A stretch of 32,455 nt of DNA from Terriglobia bacterium (lineage in GTDB: Bacteria; Acidobacteriota; Terriglobia; UBA7540). Of the stretch, positions 10,625 through 25,400 are shown piece after piece. The first letter of the stretch is position 1; each line of letters starts with the position of its first letter. Location: contig JAIQGH010000013.1 of NCBI GenBank assembly GCA_020072655.1, forward strand, positions 1 through 32,455, written 5' to 3'. The translations under genes and the position numbers were made by a program. A model generated the notes under the pieces. That model searched no databases. It was given only the letters and a program-made list of their open reading frames with translations, and was not told where the DNA came from.

Positions 10625-10672
10625 TGGAGCCGGCGAAGGGAATCGAACCCCCGACCTACGGTTTACGAAACC
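10625..10672. repeat. left attachment-site direct repeat: 48-bp copy of the 3' part of tRNA-Thr
   Basis: tggagccggcgaagggaatcgaacccccgacctacggtttacgaaacc is identical to 25298-25345, which lies inside the intact tRNA at the other end of the element. The sequences diverge immediately beyond the repeat. Confidence 0.85.
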
Positions 10673-10807
10673 AAATCTCGCCACTGATTCTAAAGAAGAT
10701 CAACAACTTACCTCGGTAAAACGCGAACAAATCCGGCAAAACCCGCAACCCCCGCGCAACCAGACTCCAACCAATTCAACGCTCGACCGAGGGATGAAGG
10801 GTGCGAA

Positions 10808-11083
10808 ATGACCTGCGCTTATTTGAAATGCGGGCAGGTATTCGAGCCTCGAAAGGCAGGGCAGAAATACCACACTTCAACGTGCAGGGAGAAGGCTCGA
10901 AACGAGCGGTATCCAGTCGTGCGGCTTGCGGCCCCGAAGGATGCTGTACGACCCTGTGTAACCACGGCAGGACGCCTCGTAGGCGAACGATTGAGCAGGG
11001 ATTCGTGTCTAGCATCGAGAATTTTCCGAGAGGCCGCAGAATGGCTAAGAATCCAGGGAATGGTGAACGGGTGTCGATGCTAG
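10808..11083 (+). CDS. small Zn-ribbon-like hypothetical protein
   Basis: 91 aa with a C-x4-C ... H-x3-C arrangement (CAYLKCGQ...YHTSTCREKA). First gene inside the element. Confidence 0.35.
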   Translation: MTCAYLKCGQVFEPRKAGQKYHTSTCREKARNERYPVVRLAAPKDAVRPCVTTAGRLVGERLSRDSCLASRIFREAAEWLRIQGMVNGCRC

Positions 11084-11187
11084 CGGCAGGAGGCTAATTG
11101 TGGAATCTAGCGGGCTTCAGAAGTCCTTTCCGCTGGACAGGCAAGCACGCAGATGTTATAGCGGGACTGTTAGGAGACGATGGAGCG

Positions 11188-11601
11188 ATGGCAGACGTTG
11201 AAACACTCACCAAAGACGAGTTGAAGGCGAGGATGGGCACAGACCGCCGCTGGACGCTGAGAGTCCTCGACCCTTCAGAGAGGCATCTCGCCAAAGACCC
11301 TGGAAATGTCCCCTGGCCGGAAGACTGCCTGATTGTGGCTGCCTTTGACGACCAAGACGTTCTGGTCGGAAGAATGGCGCTGATTGCTATAGCACACATC
11401 GAAGGAACCTGGGTAGCTCCTGAATATCGCGGTACGACGTTGCCTTTGAGGATGATTCAGCGCATGGAGTCTGAAATTCGGAAACTCGGTAGGACACACG
11501 TTTTCGCCTACATTCCCAAGGAAGACACGAAACTTTTGGAATACGCGGAGAAGATCGGGTACCAAGAGTTTCCGTGCAAGGTGTACGTGAAGGAGCTTTA
11601 A
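11188..11601 (+). CDS. GNAT-family N-acetyltransferase
   Basis: Acetyl-CoA binding motif A-like segment (WVAPEYRGTTLPLRMIQRMESEIRKLG). Start chosen at the ATG with an AGGAGA RBS 9 nt upstream. The ORF opens at 11098. Confidence 0.5.
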   Translation: MADVETLTKDELKARMGTDRRWTLRVLDPSERHLAKDPGNVPWPEDCLIVAAFDDQDVLVGRMALIAIAHIEGTWVAPEYRGTTLPLRMIQRMESEIRKLGRTHVFAYIPKEDTKLLEYAEKIGYQEFPCKVYVKEL

Positions 11602-22521: not shown

Positions 22522-23849
22522 AGGAGCTACTTCCCTGCAACGTTGAAGTCGAGAGGGCTCTCCTCGGGGCAATCCTGCTGGATAACACCTATCTCTATGT
22601 CGCCGCCGAGCGCCTTTCTCGGGACGATTTCTTCTCAGAAGCGAACCGCCTGTGCTGGGACGCCATGAAAGCGCTGATCGAGAAGCGAGTCCAGGCCGAC
22701 ACCGTGACCGTGATCGCTGAGCTTGAGCGGCAGGGGTTTCTTGAGAAGTGCGGGGGCGCCGTCCGCGTCTGTGCTCTACCAGATGGTGTTCCAATCGGGC
22801 CGGGTACGCCCATTCCCGATTACTGCCACATCATCCACGAGGGATCAGCGAAACGTAAAATTCTCAACCTGTCGCAAAAAGTCGTGGCGGAGGTGGCGGA
22901 CGGCGTAGGGAGTACCGAGATTATTGAAGCCGCCGAGTCGGTGATGGCGGAGATTCGTGGAGAGGAAGAGAAGGCCAGTCGGGGGGCCATGCCGATTTCA
23001 GAACTCGTGACCGAGTGTCTGCCCATCCTCGACCACATGAGCGGGAAAGGCGTCAGGCTTGGAATCCCTTCAGGCTTTGCGGACCTGGACGCGCTGACGG
23101 GGGGCTTCGTGCCCAGCGACATGGTGATTTTAGCGGGACGGCCTTCAGAGGGGAAGACTGCGCTCGCCCTTGAGTTTCTGTTGCGCGCCGCGAAAGCAGG
23201 GCATCCCGTTGCTATGTTCTCCCTCGAAATGAGCCGCACTTCGCTAGTGCTCCGGCTGCTCTGCCGTGAGGCAAGGATAGATCACCACAAACTGCGAACT
23301 GGGTTTCTCAGCCGGGAAGAGTGGGGGCAGCTTTCCAATTCCCTTTCGACTGTACGGAAACTTCCGATCTGGGTAGATGACCGGGCGGATGCTTCAGCCT
23401 CGGGCCTGCGCTGGCGGATTCGTTCCCTCGCGCATCGGGCGGCTGTGAAGTTGGTTGTTGTGGACTATCTCCAACTTGTTCGAGCAAAAGCAGAGAATCG
23501 AACCCAGGAAGTGACGAAGATTTCGCTGGAGCTGAAGGCGGCTGCGCGCGACCTAGGAGAAATCTGCGGCGGCACGCTGATCGCAGTTTCTCAACTGAAC
23601 CGCATCGCCGCGAATGAGAGGCCGCGCCTTCATCACCTGCGAGAGAGCGGCCAACTCGAACAGGACGCAGATGTCGTGTTGTTGATCTCGAACGCAGAAC
23701 CGGCGGAAAACGGCCAGGAAAAGCCGAACACGAAAATTATCGACGTGACAAAGCAGCGAAATGGGCCGTGCGGCGATTTCCCATTGACCTTCCTGCCGCG
23801 ATGGGTGGGCTTTGAGGACTACATCCCGGAAGAGGTGACGCTGCCCTGA
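22518..23849 (+). CDS. dnaB: replicative DNA helicase, DnaB family
   Basis: The N-terminal DnaB domain (VEVERALLGAILLDNTYLYVAAERLSRDDFFSEANRLCWDAM) is present. The RecA-like domain has Walker A AGRPSEGKTALALEF, and the DYLQLV motif is also present. Confidence 0.85.
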   Translation: MKELLPCNVEVERALLGAILLDNTYLYVAAERLSRDDFFSEANRLCWDAMKALIEKRVQADTVTVIAELERQGFLEKCGGAVRVCALPDGVPIGPGTPIPDYCHIIHEGSAKRKILNLSQKVVAEVADGVGSTEIIEAAESVMAEIRGEEEKASRGAMPISELVTECLPILDHMSGKGVRLGIPSGFADLDALTGGFVPSDMVILAGRPSEGKTALALEFLLRAAKAGHPVAMFSLEMSRTSLVLRLLCREARIDHHKLRTGFLSREEWGQLSNSLSTVRKLPIWVDDRADASASGLRWRIRSLAHRAAVKLVVVDYLQLVRAKAENRTQEVTKISLELKAAARDLGEICGGTLIAVSQLNRIAANERPRLHHLRESGQLEQDADVVLLISNAEPAENGQEKPNTKIIDVTKQRNGPCGDFPLTFLPRWVGFEDYIPEEVTLP

Positions 23850-23884
23850 ACGCCAAGCACAAGGGCGTTGACAATTCGGCAAGC

Positions 23885-24115
23885 ATGGAGTGGCTGGACC
23901 TTAAGCGGCTCCAGGATTATGCAGCGGTGTCAGAGCGCACGTTGCGCGACTGGATTCGGCTCGAAGTCAACCCCTTGCCAGCGGTTCAGGTGCGCGGAAA
24001 GATTCTGGTGCGGAAATCCGATTTCGACCACTGGCTTGACCAACACAAAGTGAAACCGCTTGACCTTGGGGTTATTGTGGAAGAGTTAGTGGGGGCCGTG
24101 ACGGATGGGCGTTAA
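23885..24115 (+). CDS. xis: excisionase (Xis, HTH_17 family)
   Basis: 76 aa (LKRLQDYAAVSERTLRDWIRLEVNPLPAVQVRGKILVRKSDFDHWL), immediately upstream of and overlapping the integrase start. Confidence 0.55.
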   Translation: MEWLDLKRLQDYAAVSERTLRDWIRLEVNPLPAVQVRGKILVRKSDFDHWLDQHKVKPLDLGVIVEELVGAVTDGR

Positions 24116-25400
24116 GGTCAGAAAGCGCGGCAGCAAGTGGTACGTGGTGATCGACTACCGCGGACGCCGCAAATCGAAGTGCGTCGGCACCCGTGAAGCG
24201 GCCGAGAAGGTCAGGCGCGAGATCGAAGCTAAACTGGCACTGGGGGATATGCGAATCTTCGAGCCAACAGCAGCGCCAACATTCGAGGACTACGCTGATC
24301 GATGGTTTGAGATCCATAAGGCGTCTCGGCTAAAGCACTCCACGGCCCAAGGCTACCAAAGCCTGCTTGAACAACACCTCATTCCTTCCCTTGGCTCACT
24401 GCGGCTCGAGGAAATCACCCGCGAACGGGCGCGCGGACTCGTGGCAGACCTCACGCAGAAGGAACTTTCACCGAGCACGGTCCGCAACGTCGCTGCGCTT
24501 TTGAGAAAAATCCTCAACGAGGCTGTAGAGGACGGCGTAATCGAATCCAATCCCGCCGCCCGCTTGGGCCTGTCAGTGTCGGCGAAGCAACAGCGCCAGG
24601 CTAAGGAATTCCTGAAACCGGATGAAATCCGAGCTCTGCTACAGACCGTCGAAGAAGGCTTCTCAACGTTCTATGCGCTTTTCATGACGCTGGTGCACAC
24701 CGGCACGAGGATCGGTGAAGCTCTGGCGCTCGAATGGGGCGACGTGCAGTTCGGCGAGAATGAGGAAGATCCGAATCGGTACATCATCGTGCGCCGGAAC
24801 TTCACCCACGGCCAGTATGCGACCGTGAAGTCGGGGCGCGAACGGCGCGTCAACATGAGCAAGGTGCTGCGTCGGGTGCTGATGGAACTTCGAGACCGCC
24901 GGATGCTTGAAGGTTTCGCTCAGGGCAGGGAAGAGATCGAGCCGTTGATGTTTCCGAGTCCGACCGGGCGTCCGCTCGACTATTCCTGGTTCAACAAACG
25001 GGTCTGGCACAAGGCGCTAGAAGCGGCGCGACTTCGCCGAGTGACGATCCATGCGCTCAGACACTCCTATGCTTCGTTCCTGATTCTGGCTGGAGCTTCA
25101 CTCGCCTACGTTCGGGATCAGTTGGGGCATTCCAGTATTCAGGTGACCGTGGACGTGTACGGCCACCTGGTCCCTGCGGACAATATCGCGTGGACCGATG
25201 CGCTGAATTGCCTAACAAGTGCGCAACAATCCGCAACCCAGGCGCAACCGGCGTTCGGGGTGGAAGAGAAGAAATCGGCGGAAGTCTTTGAGAATGTTGG
25301 AGCCGGCGAAGGGAATCGAACCCCCGACCTACGGTTTACGAAACCGTTGCTCTACCGACTGAGCTACGCCGGCCCAGATAAAAATGCTCACCCAGCGTAG
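24105..25400 (+). CDS. int: tyrosine-type site-specific integrase (phage integrase family)
   Basis: N-terminal arm-binding domain (KWYVVIDYRGRRKSKCVG), SAM-like core-binding domain, and catalytic domain with R (HTGTRIGEA), HALRHSYASFL and VDVYGHL (Tyr). The nominal ORF continues antisense through the tRNA to a TAG at 25398. The true C-terminus may be earlier. Confidence 0.85.
   Translation: MGVKVRKRGSKWYVVIDYRGRRKSKCVGTREAAEKVRREIEAKLALGDMRIFEPTAAPTFEDYADRWFEIHKASRLKHSTAQGYQSLLEQHLIPSLGSLRLEEITRERARGLVADLTQKELSPSTVRNVAALLRKILNEAVEDGVIESNPAARLGLSVSAKQQRQAKEFLKPDEIRALLQTVEEGFSTFYALFMTLVHTGTRIGEALALEWGDVQFGENEEDPNRYIIVRRNFTHGQYATVKSGRERRVNMSKVLRRVLMELRDRRMLEGFAQGREEIEPLMFPSPTGRPLDYSWFNKRVWHKALEAARLRRVTIHALRHSYASFLILAGASLAYVRDQLGHSSIQVTVDVYGHLVPADNIAWTDALNCLTSAQQSATQAQPAFGVEEKKSAEVFENVGAGEGNRTPDLRFTKPLLYRLSYAGPDKNAHPA
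25298..25345. repeat. right attachment-site direct repeat (inside intact tRNA-Thr)
   Basis: Identical 48 bp to 10625-10672. Confidence 0.85.
25298..25373 (-). tRNA. tRNA-Thr (anticodon CGU)
   Basis: The reverse complement gives GCCGGCGTAGCTCAGTCGGTAGAGCAACGGTTTCGTAAACCGTAGGTCGGGGGTTCGATTCCCTTCGCCGGCTCCA. Acceptor, D and anticodon stems pair canonically. Anticodon loop TTCGTAA gives CGT. GTTCGATTCC is the T-loop and CCA is encoded. Confidence 0.85.

Follow-up and report, generated by a model that had tools for sequence, protein, structure and literature searches.

Described elements of similar layout

A rep-xis-int operon is a feature of AICEs, elements of 10-17 kb that carry it beside attP in a tRNA gene (PMC2440964). 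The general layout of phage satellites, which are similar in size to the element described here, combines a tRNA site, int, AlpA/MerR-type HTH_17 proteins, an own replicon and defence-type cargo (PMC10085698). SatelliteFinder scores islands of phage origin that integrate and replicate as "Type C PICI-like" (PMC10085698). The element described here was found in a window of 32,455 nucleotides (the whole stretch of DNA analysed) from the genome of a soil Terriglobia (Acidobacteriota). It shares these features with both groups and nevertheless fails the membership tests for PICI, cfPICI, P4-like satellites and AICE. The initial annotation had stated that it would match no described family. For families this holds, whereas phage-derived islands that integrate and replicate are, as a general kind, well known. 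Since excision and replication genes are encoded on the element itself, and particle-building genes are absent but for a small broken leftover, we do not regard it as new in kind; it represents an undescribed lineage of a general kind already known. Our preferred reading, held with moderate confidence, is that of an integrative replicon of phage origin, probably capable of excision and replication but not of making particles, whose virion-less state would be the norm of its lineage.

Boundaries and insertion site

The discrete integrated element that had been proposed for positions 10625-25345 (14,721 bp) was confirmed: it sits site-specifically in the 3′ half of tRNA-Thr(CGT) between exact att repeats of 48 bp (Table 1), the tRNA is left whole by the insertion, and the GC content is 0.51-0.59 inside (about 0.55) vs. 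0.60-0.65 in the flanks (about 0.62). Coding sequence makes up 83% of the element, and its backbone genes are of full length. A copy 99.7% identical to the element is present in two further runs.

Table 1. Features of the element, with positions in the window
Feature	Position	Strand	Evidence or remark
attL core	10625-10672		48-bp copy of 3′ part of tRNA-Thr; perfect direct repeat with 25298-25345
91-aa Cys-rich small protein	10808-11083	+	phrog_10853 5.1e-7, full length
GNAT-like protein	11098-11601	+	Acetyltransf_1 4e-5; phrog_1249 1e-8; likely start ATG 11188
Gly-rich all-helical protein, 239 aa	11603-12322	+	large unannotated family
33-codon ORF	12330-12431	+	stump of ~500-aa phage gene downstream of Gly-rich gene
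XRE-family HTH protein, 91 aa	12787-13062	minus	HTH_3 3.6e-5
Divergent control region	13063-13477		between XRE and RHH genes
44-aa ORF, ribbon-helix-helix (CopG/Arc-like) look	13478-13612	+	ORF and translation
119-aa protein	13686-14045	+	first gene past RHH gene
ArdC-N-like ssDNA-binding domain protein	14114-14449	+	PF08401 1.4e-9
RFC/clamp-loader-like AAA+ ATPase	14516-15391	+	phrog_5846 1e-25; phrog_168 1e-21
Small tyrosine recombinase, 205 aa	15431-16048	+	PF00589 1e-33
190-aa protein, hydrophobic C-terminus	16138-16710	+	gene call in L001
XRE HTH + M78 (ImmA/IrrE) peptidase fusion, RmrA-like	17023-18153	+	Peptidase_M78 5e-16; HTH_3 3.5e-12
183-aa partner	18119-18670	+	overlaps RmrA-like gene by 35 nt
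136-aa protein, hydrophobic N-terminus	19075-19485	+	
Hairpin, 15-bp stem	19520-19553		between convergent genes; bidirectional terminator-like
HTH_17/MerR-like small protein	19542-19775	minus	HTH_17 1.6e-6
270-aa ORFan o270	20013-20825	+	313 aa if start is GTG 19884
HTH_17 (AlpA-like) small protein	20906-21217	+	HTH_17 1.5e-5; phrog_10045 3.7e-5
89-aa protein	21320-21589	+	overlaps rep start; gene call in L001/L002
Replication initiator/replisome organiser (lambda O-like, DnaD-like), winged HTH (Rep)	21586-22521	+	
Three tandem 33-bp iterons, putative ori	21916-22014		inside rep gene
DnaB-family replicative helicase	22518-23849	+	DnaB_C 4.8e-73; N-terminal domain 4.4e-19
Excisionase (HTH_17)	23885-24115	+	HTH_17 1.3e-7; overlaps int start
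Tyrosine integrase	24105-25400	+	phrog_1 5.9e-73
tRNA-Thr(CGT)	25298-25373	minus	ARAGORN; Rfam 72.7 bits
attR core	25298-25345		3′ 48 nt of tRNA-Thr(CGT); perfect repeat of attL core

Replication, excision and control

The element has the own excision and replication modules that the initial annotation had assigned to it; its int, xis, winged-HTH initiator with iterons, DnaB helicase, ArdC-N-like protein and clamp-loader-like ATPase were all recovered in the searches (Table 1 and below). Genes in the operon-like order HTH_17 - 89 aa - Rep - DnaB - Xis - Int terminate at attR. Rep matches phrog_7498 (3e-27), phrog_2514 (2e-25) and the O-like phrog_391 (3e-24), its phage matches being annotated as replisome organizer or protein O, and the iterons within its gene (TRF score 117, 2.7 copies) form repeat family D1. 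The helicase also matches phrog_19 (1.4e-77). The 89-aa protein, searched in a 112-aa version, has no family match in profile searches. Three further HTH_17 proteins had been listed; two exist, the AlpA-like one upstream of the replication genes and the one on the minus strand; in many loci a homologue of the latter is found 200-350 nt upstream of the gene for the small recombinase.

The RFC-like ATPase is additionally matched by NCBIfam RFC and DnaX (1e-18) and by the RFC small subunit in the PDB (1iqp, 3e-9). In the ArdC-N-like protein the PF08401 match spans the C-terminal half of the domain; the protein also matches the anti-restriction family phrog_7245 (1.4e-9), and in L021 a homologue with 62% identity adjoins an AAA homologue.

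The integrase ORF continues across the attR core and the tRNA antisense to it, a read-through seen in 46 of 51 family loci, and the xis-int pair is kept in 54 of 80 metagenome loci. The 205-aa recombinase, which is absent from the gene list of the initial annotation, is without the N-terminal core-binding domain and matches NCBIfam tyrosine-type invertase and Xer (~1e-29, below cut-offs); we infer a role in multimer resolution or other accessory recombination.

A cI-like XRE protein with a divergent RHH protein had also been proposed, and the pair is there, the XRE part by its HTH_3 match and the RHH part by reading the sequence alone. Its arrangement resembles that of cI/Cro: the XRE protein is a candidate maintenance repressor, and the divergent 44-aa ORF in the Cro-like position looks like an RHH protein. 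The sole tool support for the RHH assignment is the 45% identity that this ORF shows, over 42 aa, with L003 407-282, a stretch belonging to a gene called at 261-410 (minus) with the mark RHH_3 (weak). The pair precedes an operon with the ArdC-N-like and RFC-like proteins. Upstream of the RHH gene a TTGACA box was noted by eye (13443-13448) within the direct repeat TTGACATACG / TTGGCATACG (13443-13462, also listed as a tandem repeat); this putative promoter is read from the letters because the promoter scan listed none in 13063-13477.

We propose that the XRE protein holds the element silent and that upon derepression Int and Xis would excise a circle. The O-like initiator would then bind the iterons and recruit the element's DnaB, and host primase and polymerase would copy the circle in theta-type replication, as in lambdoid/P22-type replicons, while the small recombinase may resolve multimers.

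Virion and transfer genes

Neither terminase, portal, capsid, tail nor lysis genes gave a match in any called ORF (Pfam, PHROG, NCBIfam, PADLOC). The claim that virion genes are missing therefore stood for these functions; it did not for a truncated late-module relic at attL (see below). Profile searches of 13686-14045, 19884-20825 and 21251-21589, which the initial annotation had singled out, gave no capsid, TerS or packaging-interference match. Seven ORFs are without assignment, one of them with no more than a low-confidence model, so that a TerS or small structural protein of highly divergent sequence might have gone unnoticed among them.

Conjugative leading regions typically encode ArdC-N-like ssDNA-binding proteins. 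The presence of such a protein, the AICE layout of rep-xis-int and attP (PMC2440964) and the plasmid-like relative L026 (ParA-like ATPase, DUF3987) would suit an integrative mobilisable element, AICE-like or an IME whose oriT has escaped recognition, that is moved by the machinery of a co-resident conjugative element. We regard this as very unlikely, since Pfam, PHROG and NCBIfam searches revealed neither a relaxase nor an FtsK/TraB-like translocase, a coupling protein or a T4SS gene, the only ATPases being the RFC-like protein and DnaB, and since Rep is of the phage O-type rather than RepSA/RepAM and the host is not an actinomycete. As the integrative replicon that we prefer, the element would be able to build neither particles nor a conjugation channel, and its horizontal spread would therefore need a helper.

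Such a helper could be a tailed phage that induces excision and replication of the element and packages it in helper-made particles, as in the PICI-like lifestyle of a true satellite. The general satellite layout is matched (PMC10085698), and the sibling locus L004 has a weak TerS-like ORF (phrog_2538, 3.6e-4). We nevertheless consider this quite unlikely: Pfam and PHROG searches detected no TerS, capsid-morphogenesis, Ppi/Rpp-like, Sid/Psu-like or any packaging gene, no helper phage and no cos or pac site were recognised, the element was not seen in IMG/VR, and satellites have not been reported for Acidobacteriota (PMC11924767 makes no mention of one).

A late-module relic at attL

The relic at the attL end (~1.3 kb) comprises a pair of intact genes followed by a stump of 33 codons, which are homologous and syntenic with part of the late module of uncultivated phage contigs. 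The GNAT-like protein is 29-30% identical over 122 aa to L008 4205-4582 (E 1.6e-20 / 4e-22), which lies directly upstream of the Gly-rich gene in this phage contig. The Gly-rich family counts 897 clusters (E<=1e-3), with members in the late modules of L007, L008 and L010; the AF2 model of the protein is all-helical (pLDDT 74), and fold comparison gave no significant match. Over 24 aa the stump shares 62.5% identity with the N-terminus of L007 723-2294 (E 1.8e-4); with L008 5254-6747 the identity is 39% over 28 aa. The stump follows the Gly-rich gene at 7-8 nt, the same spacing as in the phage contigs. It is a putative deletion or recombination scar, and we read the relic as a probable leftover of recombination with a tailed phage.

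With the relic, a decaying prophage becomes more plausible than the initial annotation assumed. The element might be a one-off defective (cryptic) prophage at tRNA-Thr, now immobile, that has lost head, tail and lysis genes and retains the early region and a scrap of the late operon. This serious, though in our view unlikely, rival accounts for the position of the truncated late gene, immediately behind two genes of the late module and at phage-like spacing, and it agrees with modules that are all phage-type (O-like Rep, cI/Cro-like XRE/RHH, PHROG clamp-loader, anti-restriction, phrog_10853). Against it, the survival of exactly two intact late genes between attL and the switch would take two or more separate deletions, and of the late genes farther upstream no stump was seen; in addition, the backbone genes are undamaged and the two att copies match perfectly. 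A satellite, for its part, could use the GNAT-like/Gly-rich pair from a helper late module to interfere with or adapt helper virions, and the homologues of these two intact genes in uncultivated phages do indicate past DNA exchange with such phages; but the adjacent stump argues for a relic and not a tailored module. The cassette is absent from all 120 related loci, which speaks against the satellite and the defective prophage alike.

A deletion within the late operon of a prophage would also produce such a 33-codon stump, which in this respect counts against the integrative replicon.

Relatives in Acidobacteriota

The backbone recurs in many Acidobacteriota genomes, as HTH_17 plus small recombinase and as Rep-DnaB-xis-int adjoining a tRNA. 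For the 205-aa recombinase 40 related loci were found in Acidobacteriota MAGs, many with an HTH_17 gene just upstream (L004, L012, L013, L018-L020, L022-L024, L027, L043, L048); DnaB-xis-int adjoins a tRNA in L059, L063, L064, L065, L075, L120 and L126. In the sibling L012 (int 44%, xis 53%, DnaB 47%, Rep 43%, small recombinase 82% identity) host metabolic genes begin directly after the recombinase. Loci with the same small recombinase are att-bounded at 6.6 kb (L034), 8.2 kb (L029), 13.7 kb (L026) and ~16.7 kb (L028), and no large ORF tested in L026, L029 and L034 had a virion Pfam match (the ORFs of L028 lay outside the scan). The 64 and 62 large ORFs near related loci belong, among the top 25 listed, to recombination, replication and host families only, in profile summaries that reach at most 10 kb per side and would miss virion genes farther away. 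Since the same backbone is thus short and virion-less in many Acidobacteriota, we read the virion-less state as the probable normal condition of the lineage; the recurrence also speaks against a one-off defective prophage.

Among IMG/VR viral contigs, relatives were found neither for Rep and o270 nor for the small recombinase and Int, and DnaB and the AAA protein reached only 42% and 36% identity. A full-length phage with this backbone was not found there, again at odds with the defective prophage; nor was the attP junction, a point against the integrative replicon. The sibling L004 (88% identity in the small recombinase, 74% in xis, 49% in int, 48% in Rep) is visibly decaying, its DnaB being down to a 44-aa stump; this and the temperate-phage-type modules leave some probability to prophage decay, one-off or lineage-wide.

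Cargo and ORFs of no family

Several proteins had no match in the databases searched: the 119-aa protein (Pfam, PHROGs, PADLOC, NCBIfam, PDB), the 136-aa protein (Pfam, PHROGs, PADLOC, NCBIfam) and the 190-aa protein (PADLOC, NCBIfam). The 91-aa Cys-rich protein is without a Pfam match. The ORFan o270 matches only itself, with no phage or PDB match, and its single-sequence AF2 model shows helices only at low confidence (pLDDT 41).

The large XRE protein of the initial gene list is corrected to an XRE-M78 fusion that matches PADLOC RmrA, the RosmerTA antitoxin (PDLC03949, 2.4e-29, positions 5-345 of 363). Its 183-aa partner, without a match among Pfam, PHROGs, PADLOC, NCBIfam and PDB, is by position and overlap a candidate toxin, and the RosmerTA-like pair may stabilise the element and/or shield the host from phage. 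PIN-like acidic motifs can be discerned in the amino acid sequence of the partner.

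Boundaries and attachment site

The window spans an entire contig of 32,455 bp from an Acidobacteriia/Terriglobia MAG, as the source names of two of its proteins indicate. A perfect 48-bp direct repeat marks the two ends of the element, and because the right copy forms the 3' part of the gene for tRNA-Thr(CGT), the limits read in the initial annotation are the exact attL and attR cores of a 14,721-bp insertion (see the table of features). A chance origin of a repeated 48-mer within 32 kb is effectively impossible. The GC content is 0.51-0.59 inside the element versus 0.60-0.65 outside, the coding density is 83%, and two Logan assemblies contain the right half in a copy with 99.7% identity. 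Integration regenerates an intact tRNA. The predicted attP junction was not found in IMG/VR.

The integrase ORF has no stop codon ahead of the attachment core and reads through the antisense strand of the tRNA gene, Int being 431 aa long in the integrated state versus a predicted 459 aa, with a different tail, in the excised state. In 46 of the 51 loci of the integrase family the int frame enters or crosses the antisense strand of the target tRNA, always in one frame, in which the T-arm is translated as ..G.RT.D.RI..P.LY..; the eight tRNA targets of these read-through integrases are Thr, three Arg, Met, His, Gln and Lys. In myxophage Mx8, attP lies inside int and integration alters the int 3' end (PMC6070905). 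As in Mx8, the attachment core of the element is located inside the int 3' end and integration gives Int a different C-terminal tail (PMC6070905); unlike in Mx8, the effect is limited to the final ~17 codons ahead of the crossover region, and the feature is common to a whole soil-integrase family spread over eight different tRNAs.

In other Acidobacteriota MAGs (loci L022-L024 and L028) tRNA-Thr(CGT) is adjoined by unrelated integrases (23-29% identity), which suggests that this tRNA gene is an insertion hotspot.

Gene content

Features of the element and of its attachment sites
Feature	Coordinates	Strand	Basis or remark
Direct repeat, left copy (attL core)	10625-10672		48 bp, perfect
GNAT-like protein	11098-11601		profile search
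Gly-rich protein, 239 aa	11603-12322
33-codon ORF (gene stump)	12330-12431
XRE protein	12787-13062	minus	profile search
Direct repeat TTGACATACG / TTGGCATACG	13443-13462		upstream of the RHH gene
44-aa RHH-looking ORF	13478-13612		diverges from XRE gene; RHH label read from sequence
ArdC-N-like protein	14114-14449		profile search
RFC/clamp-loader-like AAA+ ATPase	14516-15391		closest solved structure is the RFC small subunit
Small tyrosine recombinase, 205 aa	15431-16048
XRE HTH + M78 (ImmA/IrrE) peptidase fusion	17023-18153
183-aa partner	18119-18670		overlaps XRE-M78 gene
ORF	19075-19485	plus	convergent with 19542-19775
Hairpin	19520-19553		15-bp stem
HTH_17 protein	19542-19775	minus	profile search
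ORF o270	20013-20825
HTH_17 protein	20906-21217		profile search
Winged-HTH initiator (Rep)	21586-22521		matches DnaD-like, lambda O-like and replisome-organiser PHROGs
Three tandem 33-bp iterons	21916-22014		inside initiator gene
DnaB-family helicase	22518-23849		profile search
Excisionase, HTH_17	23885-24115		profile search
Integrase	24105-25400		profile search
Direct repeat, right copy (attR core)	25298-25345		48 bp, perfect
tRNA-Thr(CGT)	25298-25373	minus
Predicted attP junction			GTCTTTGAGAATGT + 48-bp core + AAATCTCGCCACTGAT
Predicted empty attB			CGACGTGCTAGGGGGA + tRNA

For int, xis, DnaB, the winged-HTH initiator with its iterons, the ArdC-N-like protein and the clamp-loader-like ATPase the profile searches agreed with what had been recognised from the sequence alone. 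Of the proposed XRE protein and divergent RHH protein, the former was recovered by profile search and the latter keeps a label taken from the sequence only, its 44-aa ORF being 45% identical to a stretch of the small integrative locus L003 whose called gene is weakly marked as RHH_3. Two HTH_17 genes were found besides xis where three had been counted, so that the total is three, not four; the second tyrosine recombinase had been overlooked. Rep, DnaB, Xis and Int are encoded by a single tightly packed, co-oriented block (21586-25400) that ends at attR and whose genes overlap or stand closely spaced.

The direct repeat upstream of the RHH gene includes a TTGACA box, by eye a -35 element, and its two copies are candidate operator half-sites; the promoter scan listed no promoter at this site. 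The hairpin between the convergent genes is better read as a putative bidirectional RNA terminator than as a DNA or recombination site, because its stem pairs through G-T positions.

The gene at 17023-18153, previously taken for a plain cI-like repressor, encodes an XRE-M78 fusion that matches the RosmerTA antitoxin RmrA (PDLC03949) near full length in PADLOC (2.4e-29). As in RosmerTA (bioRxiv 10.1101/2022.05.11.491447), an antitoxin-type protein with HTH and Zn-peptidase (M78) domains is followed by an overlapping small gene; unlike in RosmerTA, the 183-aa partner matches no RmrT model, and a toxin or defence role is putative. Other PADLOC models, Pfam, PHROG and PDB gave no match to the partner either. 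The XRE-M78 protein could instead, or also, be an ImmA/ImmR-type regulator of the element or a sensor for induction.

Search for virion genes and a late-module relic

As the initial annotation had it, the element has no recognisable terminase, portal, capsid, tail or lysis gene: no called ORF matched such a family in Pfam, PHROGs, NCBIfam or PADLOC, hidden capsid or TerS families included, and PDB sequence searches for a hidden capsid or terminase yielded nothing. A tblastn search of 50,697 phage records likewise gave nothing for either o270 or the Gly-rich protein. ORFs without an assignment are those at 13686-14045, 16138-16710, 18119-18670, 19075-19485, 20013-20825 and 21320-21589. The ORFan o270 is the largest of them; its sole database match is itself, neither phage nor PDB searches gave a match, and its single-sequence structure model consists of helices only at low confidence (pLDDT 41). 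An exact look-up of the DnaB product gave no record. The statement that virion genes are missing needs qualifying at the attL end, where a relic of a phage late module is found.

The Gly-rich protein belongs to a family of 897 clusters (50% identity) at E<=1e-3, for which there is no Pfam, PHROG or NCBIfam model and whose members have a hydrophobic Gly-rich N-terminus, an all-helical prediction and the conserved motif ...LLxGDR...PE...QYD.A...F.PRGGGR. In three uncultivated phage contigs (L007, L008 and L010), each with ERF, HNH or PD-(D/E)XK genes, the Gly-rich gene is set among the long co-oriented ORFs of late modules and is followed by a ~500-aa ORF and a 490-1,130-aa ORF; in L007 and L010 an endolysin gene comes shortly after it. 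The L007 member is 63% identical to the Gly-rich protein of the element. One large neighbour shows a weak match to the Tunturi phages of Acidobacteriota.

The GNAT-like gene of the element is homologous to the 125-aa gene directly upstream of the Gly-rich gene in L008 (4205-4582; E 1.6e-20 / 4e-22), the spacing of 7-8 nt from the Gly-rich gene to the next gene is the same in element and phages, and the 33-codon ORF is the N-terminus of the ~500-aa phage gene (62.5% identity over 24 aa with L007, 39% over 28 aa with L008), after which the similarity ends and a stop codon follows. Because the GNAT/Gly pair is syntenic with the phage and the stump lies next to it, the element contains 1.3 kb of a phage late module, made up of two complete genes and the stump of a third, which is the scar of a deletion or an illegitimate recombination. 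No piece of this cassette occurs in any of 120 related loci. At the position of the GNAT-like gene, L010 has a 118-aa gene (9645-10001); homology is established for L008 alone.

For the Gly-rich protein long helices are predicted (pLDDT 74), and its model has no significant match in BFVD or PDB. Structure-search rows pointing to an "internal virion protein" were weak (E > 0.1) and were not used as evidence. By its genomic context, the protein is a candidate virion component. The analysis has as a by-product a large unannotated family (~900 clusters) of phage late modules.

Comparison with described families

The initial annotation held that no described family matches this gene content, which is correct as far as families go; the general kind of element is known. 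Because the element shares the defining features of PICIs and AICEs only in part and the markers of cfPICIs and P4-like satellites are absent, it falls outside the described families and does not represent a new category.

The PICI core consists of an integrase, an AlpA/MerR/Stl regulator, a primase-replicase, capsid morphogenesis and a small terminase (PMC10085698). Two of the five are present, the integrase at the island end, with att repeats bounding 14.7 kb, and the regulation module, formed by the two HTH_17/MerR-type proteins and the XRE protein. In the comparison with PICIs proposed at the outset, the other three were not found. Searches for a primase, Toprim, AEP or Pri-Rep gave no match, and the O-like initiator and DnaB are analogous in function, though not homologous, to the PICI primase-replicase. 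No ORF had a significant TerS family, a weak HTH cross-match of 19542-19775 to phrog_57 (E 0.004) ranking below excisionase/MerR, and for capsid morphogenesis or packaging redirection there was no head-and-packaging PHROG or Pfam match. Like PICIs (including SaPIs), the element is ~15 kb long and integrated site-specifically, has an integrase, AlpA/MerR-type small regulators, its own replication module with iterons and defence-type accessory genes, and lacks autonomous virion genes. Unlike in PICIs, int comes after the replication genes and shares their orientation instead of diverging from them, replication genes are of the O-like initiator and DnaB type, small terminase and capsid-morphogenesis genes are missing, and the host belongs to the Acidobacteriota. 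With int, regulator and replication only, the element would be scored as a "Type C" PICI-like element, which the authors of SatelliteFinder treat as possibly other mobile elements (PMC10085698). Capsid, portal, head-tail connector, protease and terminase genes of cfPICIs were not detected; with P4-like satellites the element has int and HTH_17 only in common, there being no match to Psu, Delta, Sid, Ash(epsilon) or the alpha primase-helicase.

The layout is compatible with a true phage satellite, but every hijacking hallmark is absent and the cassette at the attL end looks like a relic; we consider this explanation improbable. Just as doubtful is its more specific form, a first Acidobacteriota phage-satellite lineage with a backbone of HTH_17 plus small recombinase and Rep-DnaB-Xis-Int-tRNA, which tailed soil phages resembling L007 and L008 would mobilise, the GNAT/Gly pair acting on helper virions or DNA ejection, and which would do without TerS, Sid, Ppi or capsid gene.

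Like the AICEs (pSAM2, SLP1, pMEA300), which are 11-17 kb long and for whose replication and excision modules a phage origin is presumed (PMC2440964), the element falls within this size range and has an integrase and excisionase in a tRNA gene, a rep-xis-int block co-oriented at the attachment site, by gene order, and a repressor-controlled switch. Unlike AICEs, it lacks FtsK-like Tra, Spd, Kor(GntR) and Nudix Pif genes and, in place of rolling-circle RepSA or RepAM, has an O-like/DnaB replicon of the theta type. For an FtsK/SpoIIIE-like transfer protein (TraB/TraSA) and spread genes no match was obtained, the AAA+ protein being RFC-like, and the host is not an actinomycete but a member of the Terriglobia, with relatives in Acidobacteriota MAGs. 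Conjugative mobilisation is very improbable; only the ArdC-N domain and a gene order resembling that of AICEs speak for it.

In lambda (O) and P22 (gp18/gp12) the initiator has the ori iterons inside its own gene and is associated with a DnaB-type helicase. The element resembles such lambdoid/P22-type modules in its winged-HTH initiator, the iterons within the gene and the overlapping adjacent helicase gene; it differs in that the module is joined with xis-int and the element lacks late genes. Of a complete tailed prophage, neither Pfam nor PHROGs detected the large terminase, portal, major capsid, tail or lysis genes, and the 14.7 kb between the att sites leave no room for them; the 1.3-kb relic is all that there is of a late module.

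Proposed life cycle

By analogy with lambdoid/P22-type replicons, AICEs (PMC2440964) and RosmerTA (bioRxiv 10.1101/2022.05.11.491447), the XRE protein would repress the element, and derepression would lead to expression of the RHH operon and of the rep-xis-int block. Int and Xis would then excise the circle, Rep would bind the iterons and load the element's DnaB, and host primase and polymerase would complete the copying. The small recombinase may resolve multimers, and the RmrA-like pair may serve as an addiction and/or anti-phage module. Since there is no particle or conjugation machinery, spread between cells would require a helper.

Related elements

Loci related to the element
Locus	Extent	tRNA	Content or relationship
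L003		tRNA-Ser	small integrative locus: RHH, HTH_17, Rep, DnaC-like, Int
L006			small integrative locus: Rep, DnaB, serine recombinase, defence-like cargo
L012			sibling; identity to element: int 44%, xis 53%, DnaB 47%, Rep 43%, recombinase 82%
L004	1-20963 of a 103-kb contig (JGI 3300035659)	tRNA-Arg	sibling; identity to element: recombinase 88%, xis 74%, int 49%, Rep 48%
L034	6.6 kb	tRNA-Val	att-bounded; same recombinase
L029	8.2 kb	tRNA-Gly	att-bounded; same recombinase
L026	350-14103, 13.7 kb	tRNA-SeC, 65-bp repeat	recombinase, ParA-like ATPase, DUF3987, integrase
L028	~16.7 kb	tRNA-Thr(CGT), imperfect repeat	same recombinase

The 105 homologues of the Rep initiator include true prophage replication modules (locus L005) and small integrative loci such as L003 and L006. 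The small recombinase occurs at 40 loci, of which 37 belong to MAGs of Acidobacteriota or Terriglobia, with up to three copies per contig (three on one 2.6-Mb contig); an HTH_17 gene is located directly upstream of it in L004, L012, L013, L018-L020, L022-L024, L027, L043 and L048. HTH_17 and the 205-aa tyrosine recombinase are a conserved two-gene unit of dozens of Acidobacteriota MAGs, and many small-recombinase loci lie within a few kb of a tRNA and a full-size integrase. In the window the HTH_17 gene (19542-19775) and the recombinase gene are 3.5 kb apart in opposite orientation with the RosmerTA-like pair in between. An invertible segment run by the small recombinase would account for this arrangement; no flanking inverted repeats were found, so the idea was dropped as unsupported.

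Soil and sediment metagenomes contain 199 relatives of the integrase; xis is directly upstream of int in 54 of the 80 loci kept, and DnaB immediately upstream of xis in at least seven loci. Rep, Int, o270, the small recombinase and the Gly-family alignment had no relatives in IMG/VR, where the best identities were 42% for DnaB and 36% for the AAA protein. In the sibling L012 the backbone takes up only ~7 kb, because ordinary metabolic genes start just past the recombinase; an 11-bp repeat considered as its att site was within chance expectation and was not used. Sibling regions lie on long MAG contigs, for example on CAUVWZ020000002.1 (around 2,426,070-2,446,639) and on Ga0373628_0000151 of JGI 3300035659 (upstream of position 45,408). 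None of the large ORFs tested in L026, L029 and L034 had a virion Pfam match, and the best 25 families for the 64 and 62 large ORFs at related loci (<=10 kb on each side) were recombinases, transposases, helicases, primases, nucleases and host genes. As profile summaries of the best 25 families within at most 10 kb, these results are supportive, not conclusive, of virion-less relatives.

Because the backbone recurs in short, virion-less and sometimes att-bounded form, and because in the element the backbone genes are intact and the att repeats perfect, we lean slightly towards a phage-derived lineage of integrative replicons and not a single accident. The stump of the late module, the phage type of all the modules and the decay of the sibling L004, whose DnaB is reduced to a 44-aa stump, would fit a defective prophage; set against the recurrence and intactness of the backbone, we judge this unlikely, though worth serious consideration.

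Acidobacteriota are among the most abundant soil bacteria, and to our knowledge their mobile elements are almost undescribed. A paper on acidobacterial viruses (PMC11924767) makes no mention of satellites. The element is a cleanly bounded example of a backbone seen in dozens of Acidobacteriota genomes and ~200 soil metagenome contigs, and xis-int directed into a tRNA together with HTH_17 plus the 205-aa recombinase could be used as markers to catalogue islands of this type. If helper-dependent, the element would widen the range of satellites by one phylum and by one new replication module; if helper-independent, it would illustrate the persistence of phage early regions in the form of islands that replicate themselves and carry defence genes.

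Among the relatives, L026 is a plasmid-like integrative element. L004 has a 156-aa ORF with a weak TerS-like match (phrog_2538, 3.6e-4) and encodes a protein of >2,000 aa with a ddrB-ParB domain; a 239-aa ORF, by eye the N-terminus of a terminase ATPase, had no PHROG support and was discarded. Since a second integrase, with an HTH_17 and DUF927 primase-helicase element, is located on the far side of the same tRNA-Arg, L004 comprises two elements in a tandem array around this tRNA.
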